Source: a virus. From it: a stretch of DNA of 64,000 bases. Under the pieces are notes generated by a model. That model saw nothing but the letters and a program-made list of their open reading frames with translations. It made no database searches and had not been told where the DNA came from. The translations under genes were made by a program, and so were the position numbers. How positions within the stretch are numbered: position 1 is the first letter of the stretch; every line of letters begins with the position of its first letter. Shown here piece after piece: positions 4,849-46,209 of the stretch. The stretch is from IMG/VR virus record IMGVR_UViG_3300032116_000102, positions 21,560 through 85,559 of that record. One strand, given 5' to 3'.

Positions 4849-5208
4849 ATGACTCAACGACACCCAATCACTCCGCCGCCTGAGCTTGTACAGCAGTGGC
4901 TTGGCACCTACTTCGGTGCCACCGTTACTGGTGAAGTAAGCGATGTTGAGCTTGCTCTTGCCACCCAATCCGCCCGCTGGGGCGCTGATCAGGAGCTGGA
5001 GGCGTGCTGTGAGTTGCTGAACTGTGAACTTGGCACTGGCTGGGGGCATGGAACCAAACTCCGCGCCGCCCGCCGCCCCAAGCCGCCGAGCTTGAAGGAG
5101 CAGGCGCTAGGTGCCCTCTATGCCATAGCCACAGGCGCTGATGACACTAGAGAGTTTCACCAAGACCTTGAAACCATTAAGCAAGCTCTTGAATCCCTGC
5201 CCGATTAG
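4849..5208 (+). CDS. cassette gene, hypothetical (HPITPPPELVQQW type)
   Basis: GC-rich ORF between two sites. Confidence 0.7.
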   Translation: MTQRHPITPPPELVQQWLGTYFGATVTGEVSDVELALATQSARWGADQELEACCELLNCELGTGWGHGTKLRAARRPKPPSLKEQALGALYAIATGADDTREFHQDLETIKQALESLPD

Positions 5209-5232
5209 TCAACATCACTACAAGGTTCAACA

Positions 5233-5619
5233 ATGACTCAAAAACAATCACCTACACAGGCAGAGCCAACAGACAAAGAGCTGGCAGAGCTGTACCGCAA
5301 ATCCTATTACGAATGCGAAGACAGACAAGGTGATGCGGCGCAAGTATTTGCGCTACGTGCTGTTCTCGCCCGCTGGGGCAACCATCCGGAATCTCCAGGT
5401 AGTTCAACGCCGCAGCCCATCCCAGTGAGTGAGCGCCTGCCAAGACCGGAGGATTGGGATGAAGAAGGGAGGTGTTGGGGTTTTCACCAGTACAACCCGG
5501 AAGACGACGACATTTGGGAATCTTGGTATTTAGTACCAACTCAACACCTGTTGCCTTCTGTCCAATGGCTGGGCTTTTCCCACTGGCTCCCCGCCAACGC
5601 TTTGCCCCAGCCCTCTTAG
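5233..5619 (+). CDS. cassette gene, hypothetical (PIPVSERLP...HWLP type)
   Basis: ORF between two sites. Confidence 0.7.
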   Translation: MTQKQSPTQAEPTDKELAELYRKSYYECEDRQGDAAQVFALRAVLARWGNHPESPGSSTPQPIPVSERLPRPEDWDEEGRCWGFHQYNPEDDDIWESWYLVPTQHLLPSVQWLGFSHWLPANALPQPS

Positions 5620-5631
5620 TCCGATCAACTA

Positions 5632-5913
5632 ATGAAACTTGAAATCAAGCTCACCGATGAGCGCTACAAGCATACAAGCATTGATGAGCCCGCTGAAATG
5701 ACCACCACTTGGGAAGCCGAGATGGATGACTGCTCAGTTCACGCTTGGTTCAAAGTGTTTGAGAGCGTGCTCGGTGCTGCTGGCATGACCGAAAAGCTGA
5801 TCATGCGCGGCGCTTGCCAGCTCGCCTTTAACGAGTGCCGCGACTTTGAGGAGATGAAGAAGCTGAGCAGCGACTACGACCTTGACTTCAGCGACAACGC
5901 TGCTCCCCAGTAG
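5632..5913 (+). CDS. cassette gene, hypothetical
   Basis: ATG directly abuts the site; stop TAG lies in the next site. Confidence 0.7.
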   Translation: MKLEIKLTDERYKHTSIDEPAEMTTTWEAEMDDCSVHAWFKVFESVLGAAGMTEKLIMRGACQLAFNECRDFEEMKKLSSDYDLDFSDNAAPQ

Positions 5914-5928
5914 TCAGACCCACTACTT

Positions 5929-27422: not shown

Positions 27423-28277
27423 ATGGTTGCTAAACTGAATACATCAGATCCTTGGATTCAAGCCAAAGAAGAGCAACCGGAAGTAATGCGGTCGATTAAT
27501 CGGACCGCAGCCAGGATAACACTTAACGGAAAACGTCACTACACAACTCCGTTACCCACTGGACCTGCACCGTCCGTAACCACTATCATCAGCGAGACAG
27601 CTTCCGAAGCAAACAAACGGAAGCTTGAAATGTGGTCGAAAGCAAATCCAGGTGTCAAAGAACAAGCAGCCGAGCGGGGCACTGCCATTCACTATGGTAT
27701 GGAGCAGTACCTCAAAGGGAATAAAACGCCGGAAATCAAAGATGAATATGCGGACTTTTGGGCTGGCATGCCGGCGATTCTGGATCAATTCCAGGAAATC
27801 CTTTGGGCCGAGTCTCCAGTTCTGGATAAGTTTGACTTTACTATTGGTGCTGATGACGTTGCTCGCGTCTGGGGTTGTGACGGAGAAGGACGCGCTTGGG
27901 CTGGTGCTCCTGATATTATTGCTGTGGCTAACAATAAGCTGACGCTTGCTGACTTAAAAACCAGCGTCAAACCCTATAGCCGCAAGTGGCCTAAAGACCT
28001 GGAAAAAGGTTCGCCTGAATGGCGTGATCTCCTCGGGGGTCATCTTAAATTCAAAAAGACTTGCAAACAACTCGCTGCGTATGATATAGCTATTACCCAG
28101 ACATTGGGAATAAAAGTTCAACAAGCAGCAATCCTAGTTTCTACACCAGTAAGAACTCAGGTTTTTAAAATATCACGCAGGTTCTTAGACTCTTTGCATG
28201 AAGATTGGTACAAAATTGTTGAAGAGTATTATGCGCAAATAGAAAATTGCAATGCGTATGACCCTGATCTAATTTAA
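27423..28277 (+). CDS. PD-(D/E)XK exonuclease
   Basis: PSVTTII..RGTAIH..AGAPD..ADLKTS..QLAAY. Confidence 0.85.
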   Translation: MVAKLNTSDPWIQAKEEQPEVMRSINRTAARITLNGKRHYTTPLPTGPAPSVTTIISETASEANKRKLEMWSKANPGVKEQAAERGTAIHYGMEQYLKGNKTPEIKDEYADFWAGMPAILDQFQEILWAESPVLDKFDFTIGADDVARVWGCDGEGRAWAGAPDIIAVANNKLTLADLKTSVKPYSRKWPKDLEKGSPEWRDLLGGHLKFKKTCKQLAAYDIAITQTLGIKVQQAAILVSTPVRTQVFKISRRFLDSLHEDWYKIVEEYYAQIENCNAYDPDLI

Positions 28278-28280
28278 AAA

Positions 28281-28775
28281 ATGCAAAACAAAGTCTGTAC
28301 AATTTGCAAAGAATTAAAAGATTTGTCTTGCTTTAGCAAAGCGGGCAGAAAAGACGCTTTACGTAGTAATTGTAAAACTTGTGACGCTAAAAAGTATAAA
28401 GAATGGAAAAATAAAAATAGAACAAAATATCTACGTAGTTCTAGTAATTCTGGATTAAAAATACGATATGGAATCGGGCTTGAAGAATATGAAAAACTTT
28501 TAGCGCAGCAAAACCATAGCTGTAAAATTTGTGGAACAAAAAAACCTGGCAGAAAAGATGTTAAAAGATTTGCTGTAGATCATTGCCATAAGACAAACAA
28601 AATCAGAGGCTTGCTTTGCATGGCATGCAATACTGCAATAGGACTGTTAAACGAAGACCCAAAACTTTTTGATGCTGCTCAAAACTATTTGAGAGAGCAT
28701 CGAGCAGACCCTTGGTATGAAAGTACAACAGGCGGCAATCTTGGTATCGACGCCTGTTCGTACTCAAGTCTTTAA
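28281..28775 (+). CDS. endonuclease VII-type homing endonuclease
   Basis: CKICG..VDHCH..IRGLLCMACNTAIG; AT-rich. Confidence 0.9.
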   Translation: MQNKVCTICKELKDLSCFSKAGRKDALRSNCKTCDAKKYKEWKNKNRTKYLRSSSNSGLKIRYGIGLEEYEKLLAQQNHSCKICGTKKPGRKDVKRFAVDHCHKTNKIRGLLCMACNTAIGLLNEDPKLFDAAQNYLREHRADPWYESTTGGNLGIDACSYSSL

Positions 28776-29904: not shown

Positions 29905-30393
29905 ATGCATAAACTAACTGATTTTAAGGTCTGTCGCAAAGGCTTGCATCAATACCCTTTAAACCTAAGGCAATGCCCTGAGTGTAGAAAAATAGCTAAA
30001 GAAAAATGGTACAAAAATAATAAAGAACTTTGTAAAACATTTAGAAAAACTTGGAACGAAAAAAATAAACAACAAAGAAACAAATTAAATCAAAAATGGA
30101 AGCAAAATAATAAAAATAAAATAAACGCAATAAATTCTAAACGTCGAGCAAACAAAAGAAAGGCTGTCCCTGCTTGGGCTGATTTAAAAGAAATATTTAA
30201 AATTTATCAAGAGGCTGTAGAGCTCACCAAAAAAACGGGTGTTAAGCATGAAGTTGATCACATATATCCGCTTCAAAATAAATATATGTGCGGTTTGCAC
30301 GTACAAGAGAACTTGCAAATTTTAACAAAGAAAGAAAATCTTGCAAAAGGTAATCGAACTTGGCCTGGGCAGCTTGATTGCCAAAGAGAATAG
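29905..30393 (+). CDS. HNH homing endonuclease
   Basis: HEVDHIYPL..CGLHVQENLQILTKKENLAKGN; AT-rich; flanked by a 15-bp direct repeat. Confidence 0.9.
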   Translation: MHKLTDFKVCRKGLHQYPLNLRQCPECRKIAKEKWYKNNKELCKTFRKTWNEKNKQQRNKLNQKWKQNNKNKINAINSKRRANKRKAVPAWADLKEIFKIYQEAVELTKKTGVKHEVDHIYPLQNKYMCGLHVQENLQILTKKENLAKGNRTWPGQLDCQRE

Positions 30394-36003: not shown

Positions 36004-36666
36004 ATGGCAAACCTCCATCGGTCCGAACGGAAGCTGTTTGAATCCGTTGCTTTCCGCTTCGTACCTGATATTGATAGTCTCAATGATGACGCACTTGAGA
36101 CGCACGGGTACTACCGAGGTTTCGTGTGTCCTCACAACCATGTGATCAGGGATATTGCTGAAAACTGGTGTTATCACTGCGTTCACAAGATCCAATCCAA
36201 CATCTGTGGCTTTGATATCAACTACCTCCATGTTGAATACAAGGCCAAATATCAGAAATTGTGGCAAAAAATCACGGTTGGCGGTCCAGATGACTGCTGG
36301 CCTATCGATGCACCTGGCCCCTACACACCCAAGCGTGTATGCATGCCCTCCTATCGCTCTGCCTACAGTCACCAAAAGTCTGAAAACCTAAGCTTCCATA
36401 AGGCGATCTACAACTGTGCCTGGGGGGATGTGGGGGGAATGGTGGTGACACGTCTGTGTGGGAATCCAAGATGTGGCAATCCTCTCCACATGGTCTCCAG
36501 TTGGAATAAACTCTTCCCGCCATCGGTCGTCCATCCCTTTGAGCTTGAGTTTCAAGCAGAAAAACTCATGGCATACGGCCATAACAAAGAACAACCTTTA
36601 GTCTTTAACCAGTCCTTTCGTAACACCATTACTTTCCCAGAGGGTATAGAAATACCAGACGAGTAG
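36004..36666 (+). CDS. His-Me finger-like protein
   Basis: DDCW..FHKAIY..CGNPRCGNPLHM. Confidence 0.55.
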   Translation: MANLHRSERKLFESVAFRFVPDIDSLNDDALETHGYYRGFVCPHNHVIRDIAENWCYHCVHKIQSNICGFDINYLHVEYKAKYQKLWQKITVGGPDDCWPIDAPGPYTPKRVCMPSYRSAYSHQKSENLSFHKAIYNCAWGDVGGMVVTRLCGNPRCGNPLHMVSSWNKLFPPSVVHPFELEFQAEKLMAYGHNKEQPLVFNQSFRNTITFPEGIEIPDE

Positions 36667-38967: not shown

Positions 38968-39239
38968 ATCGCCCCAGGGTCTTTTATTGACTCTAGGTCA
39001 ACTTAATAGATTAAACAGAGGCACTACCTGCGTCTTCTTCTTGTGCTTGTTTCACTTCTGGGGGCTCTTCTGGATCAAACTCAAGTGTTTCAATAAGCTG
39101 ACCAATAAGATTGCCAGAAAAAACAATTAAATTTCGATCACTAGTAGAAGAAGCGGCACCAAAAGAATTGATGGCGCTAATCAACTCAGACTTTTTGCAA
39201 GCCATAGGGAACAAATAACTTCAAAAAGTATAACAAAAA

Positions 39240-39563
39240 TTACCAAGGTACGCCAGCTTCGGAAGTAGGGTTGATTTTTTGTTGGATCTGTTGGTACAAA
39301 GATTCCTGAATAGAAGTCACTTGATCAACACCTAAAACTTCAAATACCCAATTCAGTACCTCTTCTTTGGTCAGTTCACTAAAAGGGACAAATGTTGACG
39401 GATCAGGATCACCAAATCCCACGGAGCCATAAGCACTAGCAGACTCACCATCTTCTTCCAAAGATACGGTCCAATGTGCAGTATAGACAGCACCATCGGG
39501 ACAGGTGTCACCATCGGGAAGATGGCGCTCAAGTTGAGCAATATCCCAAGTTGCGTTAGCCAT
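39240..39563 (-). CDS. fibre-associated small protein
   Basis: WDIAQLER..FVPFSELTKEEVLNWV..GVPW. Confidence 0.6.
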   Translation of the reverse strand: MANATWDIAQLERHLPDGDTCPDGAVYTAHWTVSLEEDGESASAYGSVGFGDPDPSTFVPFSELTKEEVLNWVFEVLGVDQVTSIQESLYQQIQQKINPTSEAGVPW

Positions 39564-39590
39564 AACAAATGTTTTTTCTTATTCTAACAA

Positions 39591-40445
39591 TCAAAGCTCA
39601 GGTATTTCATATTCTTTTGTGCTGTTGCAATAGTGTTTGAAAATAATTTCACTTGTGTTTCCGGCCCAAGATGCTACCTGAGGCACGGGAATACCAGCCT
39701 CAATCCAGCGGCTAATTGCAGTGTGTCGACAGTCATAAGGACGATATAAATGCGTAATCAGTTCAGCTTGATAAAAAGGTTGCAACTTTTTGCGAAAGTA
39801 ACTTTGAAAAGCAAGCCTATCCCATGGAAAAACAAAACGATCACTCTGTGGTAATTGCTTTAAAATTTCTTGGCATTTACCGTTTAATGGAACCCAGCGA
39901 CGTTTGTTGGTTTTGGTGCTGTCTTTTAAACCATGTGTCAAGGTGTAGTTTTGATGCACCAGGATTTTATTGTCTTTAATGTCGTCCCAGAGTAATGCGC
40001 GTACTTCTCCGGTACGCATTGCAGTTTGAAGCATAAACTCTGTGTACCAAGCCCAGTTAACATTCTTGTAAGTTAATTTTGCTTCCAAAGCTGCAAGTAC
40101 TAAACCTACTTCGTTGCGTGGAATAACCACGACTTCCTCATCCCGTTGAGGAGCTTTTGGCATTTTAAAACTTGCCAAAGGATTTCTGTTGATGTAAGCG
40201 ACATCTTCTTGTGCTGCCCATTTGTACATTGTTTTTGTGTACATGGCAACGCGCCTAGAAGTAAGCACGGGTTTTTCTCCCAAAATCCAAATCATGATTT
40301 TGCGTGCCTCTTCAAAATCTTGTATGGGGCAGCGTCCCAGCCATTTGGTTACCTGTCTGTAATCTGACGTAAGGCTGGTCGGGCACAAAGAAATTGAACG
40401 CTCTTCGACGAAGGCGTTCCAAAGTTCAGAGAGCGTGGTTGGCAT
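39591..40445 (-). CDS. tyrosine recombinase, 284 aa, no arm-binding domain
   Basis: TAMRTGEV (R), KTNK (K), RPYDCRHT, WAGNT, FKHY (Y); upstream TTGACA-N17-TAGTGT promoter. Confidence 0.9.
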   Translation of the reverse strand: MPTTLSELWNAFVEERSISLCPTSLTSDYRQVTKWLGRCPIQDFEEARKIMIWILGEKPVLTSRRVAMYTKTMYKWAAQEDVAYINRNPLASFKMPKAPQRDEEVVVIPRNEVGLVLAALEAKLTYKNVNWAWYTEFMLQTAMRTGEVRALLWDDIKDNKILVHQNYTLTHGLKDSTKTNKRRWVPLNGKCQEILKQLPQSDRFVFPWDRLAFQSYFRKKLQPFYQAELITHLYRPYDCRHTAISRWIEAGIPVPQVASWAGNTSEIIFKHYCNSTKEYEIPEL

Positions 40446-40634
40446 GATATGAGTTGAGAAGAGCGATACACTAAGACACCACTCTCCTTTTGTCAACCAC
40501 GCACACTGGGGTCAAAGGTCGCTAGCTTTCAACAAATTATAGATGTCCGCAAGTTGATTAGCGACAACTGATGCCCATAGTAGAAAGCAAACAAACCACC
40601 AGTGGATAAGGCTGATTTTGTTCATGGTAAAACT

Positions 40635-40799
40635 TTAAGTGTCAGCAAGACGTTTCATGCCTTCGTCATTATCAACGTAAAGACGATAGAGTGCGGCCAG
40701 GGCGTCAGTCTCTTTAGTATCTTTCTTAATTGTTTTCGTCTCATGCCGCACCTTTTCAATGCAATAATCAAACGGTTCTAACCAGGTGTCGTCATTCAT
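40635..40799 (-). CDS. 54-aa cassette-like ORF (not in ORF track)
   Basis: ATG 2 nt after the TAGA-CACTTGC-ACTT site. Confidence 0.5.
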   Translation of the reverse strand: MNDDTWLEPFDYCIEKVRHETKTIKKDTKETDALAALYRLYVDNDEGMKRLADT

Positions 40800-40813
40800 A
40801 GAAGTGCAAGTGT

Positions 40814-41131
40814 CTAGGAGTTTTGTTCGACCTTCATCTGGCCCAGCACTTCCTTCAACAAACGATGCACTTCGCCAGCGTCGTCGATGAACTCGCCTTT
40901 GTAGTAGAAACCTTCTTCGGTGAAGCGGGCAATTTCCTTAAGGGGTTCGCCGATGCTGAAGGCGATGGTAGAGGGATCCGTGTTTTCACCAACCCCAAGA
41001 CCTTTGCTGGGCGCAACTACAAGCTTGTTTGAGGGGGTCACGGATTTCCACGGTCCATTCCCGTCAACACGGGCGTACTCCTCACCGCTTGAACGGAAGA
41101 CGAGATCGTTGTCGTAATCTTGTTGGGTCAT
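40814..41131 (-). CDS. cassette gene resembling a fibre-repeat fragment
   Basis: DLVFRSSGEEYARVDGNG; own -10 and leader; stop TAG inside a site. Confidence 0.65.
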   Translation of the reverse strand: MTQQDYDNDLVFRSSGEEYARVDGNGPWKSVTPSNKLVVAPSKGLGVGENTDPSTIAFSIGEPLKEIARFTEEGFYYKGEFIDDAGEVHRLLKEVLGQMKVEQNS

Positions 41132-41224
41132 GGTTTCTAGGGAATCGTGGCCAGGGGCAGGAGGTGAGAACTCGCTGCCCCACAACTATATGCGAGCTAG
41201 GGCCAGAGGAGAAGGGGACTACTC

Positions 41225-41258
41225 ACCGAGCAAGTTACCGAGCAAGTACCGAGCAAGT
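41225..41258. repeat. 3x ACCGAGCAAGT tandem repeat
   Basis: Copies at 41225-35, 41237-47 and 41248-58, between two core-type sites. Confidence 0.85.
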
Positions 41259-41269
41259 AGTGAGTAGGT

Positions 41270-43759
41270 CTAGGCGGCCTCAAGGGCTGCAACACGAGCG
41301 CGAAGCTGCTGAATCTCAGCGATCAGAAGAGGCACCAACACCTGATGGTCCATTTGCTGGTAGATCGGATTGCCGTCATCATCAACGGCATCTTTTTCGC
41401 CCGTGACACAATAAGGCGCAACCTCCTGCGCCTCGTGTGCAATCAGCATTGGGCGCTCAACGGTCGCGCCATTCATGACGCCTCTGTAAACTTTGAAGGC
41501 ATCAATAGTGGCTCCGGCGTTCTCTAAATCGCCCAAGATGGTCTTAGAGCGATAATCCGAAGTAGTGTTGTATGCAACAACGCCGCCCCCACGGTTGTAA
41601 GTAATGCTGCCTCGTGGGGCATTTAAGTCTGTGGCAAACCTAGAAAAGATCTGATCCCCAGAGGTTTCGTTGCCCCAGATATTGAGAATAGCCGCTGATG
41701 TCGAAGCGTCTGACCTGAGCGCACACGTATTTACGCCTGTCTGGGAAAGCACAGAAAAGGTTGCACTAAGGACGGGGTCAGTAGAGTTAATAACCGTTTT
41801 GCCTGAACTCGTAATTCGCGCCCGCTCAGTCGGGCTGCTCGCTCCGTCGGCGGTAGTGGAGAACACTAATCTCGATCTATGGTTAGATCCAGAAGTCCAG
41901 CTACCGTCTGCGATGCCTTCAATAGATGCGCCAAGATTAGATGAGTTGTCTGTAAAGTAAATTGCGCCAATTCCTGAAGTGCTCGCACTCGGCAAACTGT
42001 CTCGTGAAAGCTGGATGGTGCCATCAACACCGGAAGCAGCGGGGTTTCCTCTAATCACCACCCTTGCATTACTGAGAGTGTTACTAGACGTGCCAACTAA
42101 CAACCTGCCGGAGCTGTCGATGCGGGCGCGTTCTGTTCCTTGTATTCCAAATAGAAGTGGAAATGCCCCACGAGTTTCTAATGTCCCCGTGCCTGCGTCT
42201 GAACGAAGCTCTACGCCCTGCGTATTGCTACTGACACGGATAGTAGAAACACCGGAACGAGCTACCTCTAAGCCATCACCAACACCAAACGCAGGACTAG
42301 TAGTGCCAATCCCTACACGGCCTCCCGTTGTGATGTTTAGAACTTCAGTGTTAGATACTCCTTCATAAAGGCGAAGATTACTAGAACCTGTTCCTCCGTT
42401 CGTGGGAATTAAGCGCCACTGGTTTCCGCCATCTGCCCTGCCGATGTTGATGCCATCATCACCCTTGACATGAAGGTTCCCTGTAACGCTCGAAGTCCCT
42501 ATGCCTACACGGCCTGAGCTGTCGATGCGGAGGCGTTCGAAGCCACCGGTCGCAAACGTCAGAGTATCGGTAGTGCCGTCACTGCCGCCAATCCTCCAGT
42601 TCCAGTTGGTTCCGTCGCCGGAGTAAATGTTGTTGTAAGAGGCGTTTGTCTGCGTGTTCGCAATTAACCTTAGTTCTGTTGCACCGCCCGTGGATTGAAC
42701 TTGTTGAATAACAGTCCCACTCCCACTCACATGGAGTGCGCTACTAGGGCTCGTGGTGCCCACCCCTAGGCGGCCTGAGGAGTCAATTCTTGCTCGCTCA
42801 GTTCCATCTACCTTAAATTGAATAAGACTATTGGCTTGTGTATTTGCCTCATCAGCTTGCAAAAGTAATGCGCCAGTGCTATCTGACGCAAGCGTGGCAA
42901 TACCAAATCCAGGATATGTAAGATTTAATTTTGCCGATGTAGTTGTTGAAAGATCTAGTAGCGTGGCAGGTGAACTAGTCCCCACGCCTACGAGCCCTGC
43001 CGAGGTGATGCGCAGGCGTTCGGTGTTGTTGGTAAACAACATCAGAGCGTTGGCAGTTGGATTGCCAATACGCAATTCACTGGTGCTGTTGTCAGCAAAA
43101 ATTCGTCCTCTGACGGTACCATTTGCCGCAAGGCTTAGCTGACCATTACCAGCGGATCTGTCAATAGTAAGTGTGGATGTACTTCCTACCGCATCATTGG
43201 TAGTTGCACCTACGGAAATGTTGCCATCGCTATTAACAAACAACCTGCCAGACCCACCAGTGCTGATGGCTACTTGGTCCGCACCGGAGGAATAGATTCC
43301 AGTATTTGGGTCCCCGTTGAAACTAATTGACGGGCTTGCTGCCGTACCGCTGGGAACTGAAAGGCTTGAATTAAATACCCCTTGGTTACCACTAATCGTA
43401 TTAAATAGACCAGCATCACCAGAAACGGTGCCACCAGAAACACTAGTGAAAACCCCAGTCGTTGCTGTAAGAGTGGTGAATTGACCAGACGTACCGGTTA
43501 CCGTAGCGCCGGAGATACGACTGGTGAAGGTACCGGAAACACCAGTGATGTTGGTGAATTGCGCAGTACCACCAGTGATAGTGGTGAATTGACCCGCATT
43601 ACCGGTGACGGTAGCACCAGAAACACTGGTGGTAAAGATACCGGAAACACCAGAAATTAACGGTGAACCAGAAATTGCAAGACCACTGATAGCAATGCTG
43701 ACATCACCTGTTGCGGTGTAATAAGTTAAGGTGTCAGCCTTAAGAATTCCGTATGGCAT
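41270..43759 (-). CDS. modular tail fibre with C-terminal S74 intramolecular chaperone
   Basis: Repeated ER(L/A)RI(D/T)SSG.(V/L)G.GT modules; YNTTSDYRSK..LIAHEAQEV..coiled coil. Confidence 0.9.
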   Translation of the reverse strand: MPYGILKADTLTYYTATGDVSIAISGLAISGSPLISGVSGIFTTSVSGATVTGNAGQFTTITGGTAQFTNITGVSGTFTSRISGATVTGTSGQFTTLTATTGVFTSVSGGTVSGDAGLFNTISGNQGVFNSSLSVPSGTAASPSISFNGDPNTGIYSSGADQVAISTGGSGRLFVNSDGNISVGATTNDAVGSTSTLTIDRSAGNGQLSLAANGTVRGRIFADNSTSELRIGNPTANALMLFTNNTERLRITSAGLVGVGTSSPATLLDLSTTTSAKLNLTYPGFGIATLASDSTGALLLQADEANTQANSLIQFKVDGTERARIDSSGRLGVGTTSPSSALHVSGSGTVIQQVQSTGGATELRLIANTQTNASYNNIYSGDGTNWNWRIGGSDGTTDTLTFATGGFERLRIDSSGRVGIGTSSVTGNLHVKGDDGINIGRADGGNQWRLIPTNGGTGSSNLRLYEGVSNTEVLNITTGGRVGIGTTSPAFGVGDGLEVARSGVSTIRVSSNTQGVELRSDAGTGTLETRGAFPLLFGIQGTERARIDSSGRLLVGTSSNTLSNARVVIRGNPAASGVDGTIQLSRDSLPSASTSGIGAIYFTDNSSNLGASIEGIADGSWTSGSNHRSRLVFSTTADGASSPTERARITSSGKTVINSTDPVLSATFSVLSQTGVNTCALRSDASTSAAILNIWGNETSGDQIFSRFATDLNAPRGSITYNRGGGVVAYNTTSDYRSKTILGDLENAGATIDAFKVYRGVMNGATVERPMLIAHEAQEVAPYCVTGEKDAVDDDGNPIYQQMDHQVLVPLLIAEIQQLRARVAALEAA

Positions 43760-43785
43760 CAGAACTATTACCTTTTGTTTCTAGT

Positions 43786-45768
43786 TTAATCCAAGATTTT
43801 CCAAGTTGAACCAGATGGAACTGTTACAGTAATTCCAGATTCAATTCCTACAGGACCAACTGATAGTCCGTTGTATCCAATACCAATGGCGTAGTTGATA
43901 TCAATAAGGATTTTTGTTTCCGCAATTACATTCGTAACAAGGGTGCCAGTGGTTGTCGCAACAGTCCATGTCGTCTGACCGTTGCCCAAGGTTGTCAGCA
44001 CATAGCCTGACGTACCAGGTGTTGCTGGGAACGAGAACTGGTTGAAGGGACGAACATCACCTGCACCAGATGCAAAAACAACACCGCCTGCAACATAAGT
44101 ACCACCAACAATACGTGCAAACGTACCTGTGCCAACGCTCAGGTTATTACCAGTGATTGTGGTGCCGGAAAGATTAGTGAACTGGCCGCTAACTGCCGTA
44201 AAGTTGGCAAATAAACCAGTAGTTCCTGTAATAGTTGCACCAGAAACCCTGGTGAAGTTACCGGTACCTACTGTTTGAACAGTAAATAAACCTGTAACAC
44301 CAGTCAGCGTAGCTCCAGAGGCGTAGACAAAGTAACCACTACCAACGTTTAAGGTGCTGGCATTGATCGTGTTACCGGTAACTGTTGCGCCGCTTAATAG
44401 AGTGGTAAAAACACCGGTGACGCCTGTAATAGAACGCCCTAAGACGACATCACCTGTTACCGTTGGGGCGTAAACAATGGTGTTTCCGTAAATACCGTTG
44501 CCGGTAACACTGTCAAAGAGAGCGGTTGTACCCGTAACGGTCGAACCAGAAATAGTGCCACTGACAGTTAAACCACTAACAACAGTCCCAGAGCCGCCAA
44601 TGAAAAGATTACCGCTGGCGGAAAGATTGCCGGTGGTTGAAATCGTGCTGACATTAATCTGGTCAGTGAAAGTACCAGTGGCTGCCGTCAGTGTTGTAAA
44701 TAAACCTGTAACACCAGTAATGGTTTGGCCAGACAGACGACTGGTGAATGTACCTGAGATTCCGGTTGTATTCGTAAAGAGGGCTGTATTGCCTGTAATC
44801 GTCGCTCCAGAGAGCCTAGAGGTGAAGACGCCGGAAACTCCTTGTACCTGGTCAATATTTCCAGTAAGGGCTGTAATCGTTGCCCCGGATACAGCAATGG
44901 TTCCAGTTACATAGGTGGCAGTCAGGCTGGTGAATTGGCCTGCGCCTCCCGTGATTGTTGTGCCGGAAAGATTGGTGAACTGACCCGTGACGGTATTGAG
45001 TTGCGTGAACTGTCCTGTGTTGCCAGTAATGACAGCGCCAGAGAGTTGTGTTGTAAAAGTTCCCGAGACTCCAGTGGTGTTGGCAAATAAAGCCGTATCG
45101 CCTGTAATCGTCGCTCCAGAAAGTCTGGTAGTGAACGTTCCAGAAACTCCAGTGAGGTTAGTAAAACGTGCCGTATTACCTGTAACAAGTGCACCAGAAA
45201 CACTGGTCGTGAAGACACCGGTTACACCTGTAATCGATGTGGTATTGATCGTAATTGCATTGACGGTATTACCTGTGATTGTTTGACCGGTAATTCCACT
45301 CGCCGCAATTGTGTTGCCGGTGATTGCGCCACCACTGATATTGGTCGATACAACGGAATCAAACGCAGCATTCGGCGCCTGAAGCGAAACAAAATATCCG
45401 TTTGTTCCGTTGACGTTTAAACCTTGAATGCTTTGACCTGTAATCGTGTTACCACTGATAGTGCCAGTGACGGTCAGATTACTGATTGCCAGGTTGGTAA
45501 ATATACCGGTGCCAGCAACCGTTAAGTTTCCTTGTACGGTCGTATTGCCAGATACGCCTAAATTATTGGTAACCGTTAAAGAGTTGACGGTGCCGCCCGT
45601 TAACTGCAGGTAGTAATTATTAAGATATGCTTTATGTTCTTGTACGGTAAACTTCTTATTCTTTAAGCCCGGATCTACTTCAGCTAAGTGAACAATAGTA
45701 AATAGATCGGCATCATCAATGCCAATCGAAGTGATTGCTGGTAAGTCCGAGATCCGCCTATTGGCCAC
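43786..45768 (-). CDS. Thr/Gly-rich fibre protein
   Basis: Many SGATITG/TGVSG repeats; MANRRISDLP N-terminus. Confidence 0.75.
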   Translation of the reverse strand: MANRRISDLPAITSIGIDDADLFTIVHLAEVDPGLKNKKFTVQEHKAYLNNYYLQLTGGTVNSLTVTNNLGVSGNTTVQGNLTVAGTGIFTNLAISNLTVTGTISGNTITGQSIQGLNVNGTNGYFVSLQAPNAAFDSVVSTNISGGAITGNTIAASGITGQTITGNTVNAITINTTSITGVTGVFTTSVSGALVTGNTARFTNLTGVSGTFTTRLSGATITGDTALFANTTGVSGTFTTQLSGAVITGNTGQFTQLNTVTGQFTNLSGTTITGGAGQFTSLTATYVTGTIAVSGATITALTGNIDQVQGVSGVFTSRLSGATITGNTALFTNTTGISGTFTSRLSGQTITGVTGLFTTLTAATGTFTDQINVSTISTTGNLSASGNLFIGGSGTVVSGLTVSGTISGSTVTGTTALFDSVTGNGIYGNTIVYAPTVTGDVVLGRSITGVTGVFTTLLSGATVTGNTINASTLNVGSGYFVYASGATLTGVTGLFTVQTVGTGNFTRVSGATITGTTGLFANFTAVSGQFTNLSGTTITGNNLSVGTGTFARIVGGTYVAGGVVFASGAGDVRPFNQFSFPATPGTSGYVLTTLGNGQTTWTVATTTGTLVTNVIAETKILIDINYAIGIGYNGLSVGPVGIESGITVTVPSGSTWKILD

Positions 45769-45820
45769 CTATATGCTCGCAAACCTTATAACTAAAATTA
45801 TAGTTTAGGTTTGTCGTATT

Positions 45821-46156
45821 TTATTTGACTCTGATTTCAACTTGAGGTAGGATGCGCGATCCTAGTCCCCACAAGGCCTGGACACCGGTAACAAGACCAC
45901 AAGAAAGAAGTAGAATCAATAAAAGCTCTGCAACTGTCAAGTTGCGTCGCAGATAAATAATCTCTGGTTTTGGCTGAGGAACGGGAGGCTGGAACGATGG
46001 AGGAGGGGCAACTAAACGCTGAGGCAAGGGCTCCGCATTTGCTTGGGCAATGGCATGTTCACGAGCAATCGCCTTCAGCATTTCAACTTGCTCAGCAGAA
46101 AGCTTGGGAGGATTCTGAAACTCTGGTGGGGTGCTTCCAGGGATTTGGTCTTCCAT
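45821..46156 (-). CDS. membrane protein
   Basis: Single C-terminal hydrophobic helix. Confidence 0.5.
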   Translation of the reverse strand: MEDQIPGSTPPEFQNPPKLSAEQVEMLKAIAREHAIAQANAEPLPQRLVAPPPSFQPPVPQPKPEIIYLRRNLTVAELLLILLLSCGLVTGVQALWGLGSRILPQVEIRVK

Positions 46157-46209
46157 GATCTAACAATTGTCTTGCAAATACCTTAGCATTTAGCCAAAAC
46201 AACTGCTGT

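Follow-up and report, generated by a model that had tools for sequence, protein, structure and literature searches.

Shared nucleotide spelling at the joints of a cyanophage tail fibre and its possible part in cassette exchange

The fibre gene and its seven sites

The DNA analysed here, referred to as the window, is a stretch of 64,000 nucleotides (nt) covering bases 21560-85559 of the IMG/VR viral contig IMGVR_UViG_3300032116_000102, which is 85.6 kilobases (kb) long and is rated complete by CheckV. The closest cultured relatives of this phage are Synechococcus phages, its DUF7936-lysin block resembling that of S-EIVl and its integrase that of S-LBS1. The subject of this work is a distal tail-fibre gene on the minus strand, seven short sites within it, and the tyrosine recombinase encoded nearby. 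An earlier note on the window had described ten strings of the form TAGN-N7-ACTW in and around the fibre gene, and had suggested that the recombinase inserts, excises or swaps in-frame receptor-binding modules at them. By the analysis presented below, the observation is partly confirmed and the interpretation partly supported.

On the minus strand the genes follow one another in the order 660-amino-acid (aa) fibre-like protein, 829-aa fibre, small open reading frame (ORF), 54-aa ORF, recombinase, DUF7936, 67-aa ORF and two-domain endolysin. The 829-aa fibre is laid out with GxTxT-type repeats in its N-terminal part, modules in the centre, and a C-terminal block ending in an SDYRSK motif. None of the Pfam families matched it, and its residues 313-442 matched the Bdellovibrio MAT fibre 8OJN (E = 1.6e-9). 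Homologues of the fibre have been labelled 'chaperone of endosialidase' by their depositors; together with the SDYRSK motif, this amounts to a resemblance to Peptidase_S74 (PF13884) only, residues 634-829 giving no Pfam match even at E <= 1. The gene and the sites, which are called joints hereafter, are as follows.

41270-43759, minus strand, distal tail-fibre gene, 829 aa; matches phrog_18345 tail fiber (6.7e-74) and, by tblastn, cyanophage tail fibres
43258-43272, minus strand, joint X (VAIST), GTAGCCATCAGCACT, a variant of the common spelling GTAGCCATCTCGACT; first in the joint order
42976-42990, minus strand, xGxGT-type joint (VGVGT), GTAGGCGTGGGGACT; a contig loose end and contig joints lie at 43022-43033
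42754-42768, minus strand, xGxGT-type joint (LGVGT), CTAGGGGTGGGCACC, a non-canonical spelling
42493-42507, minus strand, joint A (VGIGT), GTAGGCATAGGGACT, a canonical spelling
42301-42315, minus strand, joint B (VGIGT), GTAGGGATTGGCACT, the commonest spelling
42085-42099, minus strand, joint L (LLVGT), TTAGTTGGCACG followed by TCT
41854-41868, minus strand, joint D (LVFST), TTAGTGTTCTCCACT; start of the conserved C-terminal block

All ten strings (10/10) lie on the minus strand where they had been placed. Six of them, beginning at 42990, 42507, 42315, 41868, 41272 and 40816, agree with the TAGN-N7-ACTW consensus, and the other four depart from it by ending in ACTG, ACCA, TCTA and TCCT. Those outside the gene are weaker: the strings at 41272 and 40816 are TAG stop codons followed by ACT, and that at 41221 belongs to a short non-coding stretch common to phage S-LBS1. 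The seven in-gene sites translate, in gene order, to VAIST, VGVGT, LGVGT, VGIGT, VGIGT, LVGTS and LVFST, and are thereby the nucleotide form of four peptides conserved in the fibres, xAIST, xGxGT, LLVGT and LVFST, found at the starts of fibre modules in the contexts ER-x-RI-D/T-SSG-x-VGIGT-S/T-SP and R-LVFSTTADGASSPTER. As the earlier note had observed, all seven are in one frame, each starting at codon position 2 of GTA, CTA or TTA; the frame is shared because the sites are conserved peptides at module starts. Against a codon-shuffled null in which the protein and the codon usage of the gene were kept, the four strict in-gene matches compare with 0.76 expected (P = 0.004). In the whole window, TAGN-N7-ACTW was counted 25 times, four palindromic matches being counted on both strands, against 10.1 +/- 3.4 expected, and none of 100 shuffles reached 25.

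A locked codon spelling

The NTA codons used for Val or Leu at the sites had been taken as a sign of constraint at the DNA level, and this proved right well beyond the window, where the spelling is fixed beyond the need of the peptide. Among 69 related fibre ORFs, the Val/Leu codon of the motifs is NTA in 176 of 228 cases (77%), compared with 402 of 1961 (20%) for such codons before G elsewhere. The latter figure rules out a general preference for hidden stop codons (the 'ambush' bias). Of 62 distinct xGxGT modules in fibres that adjoin an integrase homologue, 46 begin with an NTA codon, with GTA in 30/38 against 20% in the same ORFs (P = 1e-14), and 41 of the 62 use just two 15-mers, NTAGGGATTGGCACT and NTAGGTCTGGGGACT, even though GGG makes up only 8% of Gly codons.

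The dominant cores are GTAGGGATTGGCACT, NTAGGTCTGGGGACT, GTAGGCATAGGGACT, [CT]TAGTGTTCTCCACT, TTAGTTGGCACG and GTAGCCATCTCGACT. Of 38 instances of LVFST, 27 have the spelling [CT]TAGTGTTCTCCACT; TTAGTTGGCACG is found in 32 of the 44 instances of LLVGT (37 of 44 when the GGT variant is included), and GTAGCCATCTC[GA]ACT in 14 of the 33 instances of xAIST. All four motif types open with an out-of-frame TAG and three close with ACT, the distance from TAG to the Thr codon being different in the LLVGT joint. Individual spellings also turn up in cultured phages: GTCGGCATCGGCACC recurs in S-CBP1, and S-PRM1 carries close variants of the GGCATCGG centre.

When IMG/VR was scanned for exact matches to GTAGGGATTGGCACT, at least 126 were returned; among the 126 listed, at least 121 stand in the peptide context of the fibre, their flanks being very diverse and their loci of 32-62% guanine-cytosine (GC) content. 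A synonymous control built from commoner codons returned at least 118 matches, and no more than 50 of the 118 listed were in context by a loose test. A frozen DNA spelling of the short loops between the fibre modules is common to hundreds of phages.

Unrelated flanks and a fixed order

Many phages with unrelated flanks have identical cores of 14-18 nt. When modules with the same 14-mer were paired between different loci, both distal flanks showed less than 50% identity in 701 of 745 pairs, with a median of 32%, and third-position identity fell to background one to two codons outside the 14-18-nt core. Common descent of whole modules was considered as the cause of the identical cores, and was rejected on these flank data. 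In the window fibre, joint A is identical in the loci L002 and L003 and in S-H1, WH11-B and S-LBS1 although the flanks are unrelated, and joint B is identical at 15/15 nt in nine fibres with flanks at chance identity. The VGVGT joint is part of a stretch of about 55 nt that recurs almost unchanged in L002, L003 and WH11-B, and the nucleotide match to L003 starts 4 nt upstream of joint D.

The joints also keep their places. In 154 fibre ORFs with two or more joints, counting C and A as two xGxGT alleles, the order is nearly always X, then C or A, then B, L and D: X precedes B in 77 cases and follows it in none (77:0), and the corresponding ratios are 76:9 for C before B, 121:12 for B before L, and 85:5 for L before D. 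Most departures from this order are tandem duplications of the C-B-L-D block. The window fibre, with X, two variant xGxGT joints, A, B, L and D, follows this order, and these are the seven sites first noticed. Nucleotide-locked motifs thus alternate in fixed order with variable segments, which is the arrangement looked for in motif-guided homologous module exchange.

Mosaic breakpoints at the joints

Junctions between related fibres often fall on the sites, with an enrichment of two- to five-fold. When 61 fibre ORFs were compared by blastn and matches of at least 120 nt and at least 80% identity were considered, 20% of their internal ends were within 20 nt of an xGxGT motif, against 3.9% at random and a maximum of 8.2% in 200 trials. 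With all four motifs considered and each pair counted once, 34% of such ends were this close to a motif, against 16% at random and a maximum of 27% in 500 trials; these pair statistics count related sequences repeatedly, and the counts are thereby inflated. The enrichment at joints is solid but not exclusive.

In several pairs the change is abrupt. L043 and L044 are 98.8% identical over 405 nt and unrelated from 12 nt past the core; the likeness of L073 to L078, and of L048 to L110, ends directly after the core, and that of L037 to L041 begins at the TAG of the core. The pair S-CBP3 and S-CBP4, both of which are recorded on the strain CB0101, was rejected as an example, their 97% identity stopping about 25-30 nt after joint X. 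Contigs assembled from public runs, which are the form of all the metagenome evidence used here, part from the window at joints in four freshwater metagenomes, with loose ends at 42316 (joint B) in two of them, at 42085 (joint L) and at 41868 (joint D). In one freshwater metagenome the cassette 42085-42316, from joint B to joint L, has about ten-fold higher summed contig depth than its surroundings, and is therefore shared with other, more abundant phages. Contig 'joints' that link one site with another (41866 to 42990, 42316 to 42967 and others) were considered as deletions in this phage and rejected, since they match over only 21-30 nt and come from contigs of other phages, which points to shared cores.

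The neighbouring genes

The features around the fibre gene are listed below.

43786-45768, minus strand, upstream fibre-like protein, 660 aa; 81-90% aa identity in L002, L006-L008 and L017
39591-40445, minus strand, tyrosine recombinase, 284 aa, with its true start at the ATG of 40445; PF00589 (1.9e-12) and phrog_1 integrase (1.2e-39)
39240-39563, minus strand, DUF7936 gene, PF25590 (9.4e-28); the usual downstream partner of the fibre family

The conserved 660-aa protein, for which no match was obtained in Pfam or PHROG, is probably the proximal part of the fibre. DUF7936 directly follows the fibre in integrase-free relatives, and it has been seen after this fibre family in podo-, sipho- and S-EIVl-like phages as well as in one Roseobacter phage. 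Its homologue in S-EIVl and DSL-LC07 is called 'lysozyme', which looks like a mis-annotation. An AlphaFold model of DUF7936, with a predicted local distance difference test score (pLDDT) of 86.8, has three strands and two helices and gave no significant match in the PDB, nuclease-like or other; the protein was rejected as a recombination factor on the strength of this confident model without a PDB match.

The recombinase, referred to as the integrase (gene int), scores 47.7 bits against PF00589, whose cut-off is 27.1. In 62 distinct homologues R144, Y237-x-x-R240-H241, N262 and Y272 are invariant, and a Lys stands in the stretch TKTNK. Compared by eye with the canonical motifs of the catalytic set R-K-H-R-H/W-Y, Tyr237 occupies what would be the position of His-II and Asn262 what is presumably that of His/Trp-III; a search of PDB sequences returned no match on which a catalytic alignment could be anchored. 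Among 80 IMG/VR loci, whose integrase homologues are mostly of 80-95% identity, 46 have enough sequence to show the upstream side, and in 37 of these a fibre homologue precedes int on the same strand; DUF7936 comes immediately after int in 72 of 78. Between phages whose fibres share only 30-40% identity the integrase keeps 80-95%, and its place between fibre and DUF7936 is near-fixed in phages with contigs of 34-83 kb (loci L031-L110). The locus L108 (5433-6855) carries a 62% homologue in the opposite orientation, flanked by fibre-like genes and an endolysin and beside an HNH endonuclease; considered as a different context, it was found to be still a phage locus between fibre-like and lysis genes, so that the fibre-lysis address is kept despite the changed orientation and neighbours.

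The cultured siphovirus S-LBS1 has a fibre, an integrase and a DUF7936 homologue in the same order, and its integrase is 69.5% identical to that of the window in nucleotides and 77% in amino acids. The backbone differs, being that of a 34.6-kb siphovirus in S-LBS1 and of an 85.6 kb S-EIVl-like phage here, where two small ORFs part the fibre from int. Zhong and others described that S-LBS1-like integrases are common in freshwater viromes, and lysogeny has not been demonstrated for S-LBS1 (Zhong et al., 2018; PMC6157547). Among the representative genomes of 185,579 species, a scan that finds close relatives only detected no cyanobacterial prophage with an integrated copy of the integrase. Its three close matches were short contigs of metagenome-assembled genomes assigned to Methylacidiphilales, Hyphomonadaceae and Ignavibacteria, and these are probably mis-binned phage DNA. 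No tRNA-like or Rfam element was found around int by ARAGORN and an Rfam scan, and no attP, attB or prophage by these searches together with the species genomes. Judged by its family membership, the integrase most likely serves ordinary site-specific integration or the resolution of phage genomes, and int could also pass from one backbone to another through homologous exchange in the conserved C-terminus of the fibre and in DUF7936.

The spacer and other features of the window

The spacer between fibre and integrase has several features of its own. Three tandem copies of ACTTGCTCGGT lie at 41223-41257 (minus strand), between the fibre stop codon and the stretch with AGTAGTCCCCTTC; the locus L053 matches 41223-41257 in two overlapping registers and appears to carry a similar repeat. 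The 13-nt AGTAGTCCCCTTC is common to S-LBS1 and the window, and recurs in a few loci including the integrase-free L011. Next comes a block at 41114-41186 (minus strand) with a promoter-like element, which in relatives has -35 TTGAC and -10 TAnnGT, a GGGGCAG...CTGCCCC hairpin with CACCTCC in its loop, and the ATG of an ORF of about 105 aa (true start 41131). It is 80-94% conserved in about 20 loci, again including L011, and has the look of a small, separate transcription unit that follows the fibre. The conserved patch 41186-41114 was rejected as an attP, as it reads better as promoter, hairpin and start codon and is present also without int. At 40499-40639, the 141 nt upstream of int are replaced by 29 other bases in contigs of two metagenomes from different studies, which is a natural indel in the int promoter region.

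Elsewhere in the window, an exonuclease (phrog_298), two endonuclease VII-like genes and an HNH endonuclease, with possible recombination or homing functions, are found at 27423-28775, 29905-30393 and 36004-36666. Palindromic TAGTC-N5-xACTA strings at 5206-5220, 5617-5631 and 5911-5925 have no relation to the fibre joints. These three are a stop-start junction motif in a run of small genes, each string running from the TAG stop codon of one gene to a point 0-12 nt short of the ATG of the next.

How the joints may work

Taking together the locked spelling, the position specificity, the independence from flanks and the breakpoint enrichment, it is reasonably probable that the seven sites are position-specific, codon-locked linkers for the homologous, in-frame exchange of fibre cassettes. 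The joints would be short structural loops parting the modules of a trimeric beta-helical tail fibre, and a peptide so like a capping loop would be a safe place to join modules. Their nucleotide spelling, beyond the peptide itself, is common to a large pool of mostly freshwater and estuarine phage fibres. As each position in the fibre has its own spelling (X, C or A, B, L, D), a joint would find its partner only in the joint of the same type on another phage genome. The variable cassettes between joints would then change hands between co-infecting phages or prophages by homologous or short-homology recombination, with frame and register preserved, and the copying of cassettes with intact joints into many backgrounds would keep the spelling common. 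Both this kind of exchange and its role in maintaining the spelling are what we infer from the patterns described. The earlier idea of a fibre-shuffling system is retained in so far as joints at the DNA level and module exchange are concerned, while shuffling driven by the recombinase is not.

Several points weigh against this explanation by homologous exchange. All the evidence for exchange at the joints is sequence comparison, from which recombination is deduced and not directly observed. For exchange of the RecA type, 14-18 nt of exact homology is short, and no strand-annealing protein was detected among the ten DNA-metabolism ORFs tested, only exonuclease and endonuclease VII-like genes. 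The model does not account for the out-of-frame TAG that opens all four motif types; the TAG start and the ACT end may come from deep paralogy of h-x-h-[GS]-T beta-helix rungs or from direct recognition at the DNA level. About two thirds of the mosaic breakpoints are away from any joint, the breakpoint counts are inflated as stated, and the counts of the IMG/VR scans, for the core and for its control, are lower bounds. Furthermore, the fibres of S-CBP1, S-PRM1, CRP-7 and S-EIVl have the same loop peptide in another spelling, GTCGGCATCGG being one found in S-CBP1, which means that the peptide does not require the locked spelling and that the spelling is not obligatory.

The spelling might instead be locked for translation or folding, for example by a slow NTA-GGG pair that paces co-translational trimer folding at the capping loops, with junctions meeting the motifs only as domain boundaries where hybrid proteins still fold. 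The cores do contain rare codons (GTA, ATA and GGG), the peptide corresponds to a structural loop in the MAT fibre as far as that work describes it (PMC10769870), and functional selection after random recombination would also leave breakpoints at domain borders. This reading is nevertheless unlikely, as the synonymous positions are linked in a few discrete alleles and not chosen independently, different alleles stand at different positions in a fixed order, common codons spell the same loop in many fibres, and in several pairs identity starts or stops at the core to the nucleotide. Discrete linked alleles in fixed order argue against independent selection on codons and fit identity of the joints by descent with their flanks replaced. 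They bear likewise on a different enzyme with sequence specificity, for instance a nickase or a homing-type nuclease of the HNH or endonuclease VII kind, which would cut the TAG-containing core and leave repair to copy the neighbouring cassette from a co-infecting genome: linked haplotypes are unlike one degenerate recognition sequence. An enzyme of this kind would supply a cause for the leading TAG that plain homology leaves unexplained across four motifs, the exact conservation over so wide a GC range suggests a direct DNA constraint, and the genome has several HNH or endonuclease VII-like genes, one standing beside the integrase in L108. However, no nuclease gene is consistently linked to the fibre, whose sole constant neighbour is DUF7936 with its model lacking a nuclease-like match, and a target gains nothing by staying cleavable; we regard such an enzyme as very unlikely.

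The tyrosine recombinase itself could exchange cassettes between like sites, in cis or in trans from an integrase-bearing co-infecting phage, with TAG and ACTA as common arms and the centre of 7-8 base pairs (bp) as a type-specific overlap. In a variant of this reading, the joints would be heterospecific targets of a natural recombinase-mediated cassette exchange by a non-canonical recombinase placed between fibre and DUF7936. Its address downstream of the fibre and upstream of DUF7936, also in S-LBS1, its conservation where fibres diverge, and its unusual yet invariant catalytic set are in keeping with such a role, as are the missing integrated copies and the undemonstrated lysogeny of S-LBS1 (PMC6157547). 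The leading TAG in all joint types and the mostly closing ACT could serve as its arms, and position-specific centres would give exchange in register. The proposed core-site geometry of tyrosine recombinases did not hold up, however: arms of about 9-13 bp around a 6-8-bp overlap would be expected, and the locked footprint is 14-18 nt with 'arms' of 3-4 bp, the inverted part being TAG/CTA only and no further dyad symmetry being present. The different TAG-to-Thr distance in the LLVGT joint also speaks against the recombinase. No copy of a core that might act as a partner site lies near int or elsewhere in the window. A shufflon or invertible fibre layout of the Rci/sfx or Gin/gix type was rejected, with no significant inverted repeats in 39000-46200 and all sites direct, in one orientation and one frame. 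Four complete genomes, S-CBP4, S-H1, WH11-B and DSL-LC07, have joints A, B, C or D and no PF00589 gene, and among the core-B IMG/VR loci listed with at least 4 kb downstream an integrase homologue is present in only 8 of 39, against 31 of 39 for DUF7936. An integrase after the tail-fibre genes is, moreover, the ordinary textbook layout in lambdoid phages. The insertion, excision or swapping of modules by the adjacent integrase is consequently not borne out, and the neighbouring integrase is probably not the enzyme responsible at the joints; exchange by it between like sites is most unlikely, and hardly any greater probability than a few chances in a hundred attaches to the heterospecific variant. 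The tolerance of non-matching overlaps that had been ascribed to the enzyme need not be invoked, as sites of each type have a position of their own and would pair among themselves.

Related systems and meaning for phage biology

Phage Mu with Gin, phage P1 with Cin and plasmid R64 with Rci and its sfx sites invert segments between inverted repeats, by which alternative C-terminal exons on the opposite strand are brought into use. The likeness to the present locus is that the gene of a site-specific recombinase adjoins a receptor-binding gene; here the sites are direct, inverted repeats and spare exons are lacking, and joints occur also without a recombinase.

A closer parallel is offered by the T-even phages, in which recombination hot spots have been proposed at the glycine-rich motifs of gp38 (PMC12032242, citing Tetart, 1998). 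As far as that account goes, the gp38 motifs and the His boxes of gp37 are likewise short conserved motifs in fixed order between hypervariable segments and proposed crossover points for homologous shuffling (PMC12032242), and by analogy the joints would be their counterpart in this fibre family. From what the account gives of the T-even case, the differences are that the fibre here is a trimeric beta-helix of the MAT or S74-like kind in phages of other hosts, that the joints span podo-, sipho- and S-EIVl-like cyanophages with exchange deduced from comparing sequences only, and that there are five position-specific spellings, all with an out-of-frame TAG start. For MAT and S74 fibres, Caulton and others described a capping-loop motif, V-G-G/N-pi-x-x-P-x-x-x-L (Caulton et al., 2024; PMC10769870; PDB 8OJN and 8OND), which can be likened to the xGxGT-x-x-P-x-x-x-L found here with a spacing that differs by one residue. 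MAT fibres, as presented there, and the fibre of the window are both chimeric, with a conserved anchor and diverse tips. The parts of that article that concern the loop treat peptide and structure, and do not mention nucleotide-level locking or recombination at the loop (PMC10769870).

Tail fibres decide which cells a phage infects. Members of this fibre family occur in podo-, sipho- and S-EIVl-like cyanophages from lakes and estuaries, and they appear to share a set of five numbered joints, exact to the nucleotide, between which the cassettes are interchangeable. The integrase bears on whether abundant freshwater phages are temperate, being a conserved, atypical enzyme at a near-fixed address for which no prophage has yet been found. 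If the proposed role of the joints is true, it would account for the free movement of host-recognition parts among unrelated phages of picocyanobacteria, and it would provide a map of where crossovers are to be expected.

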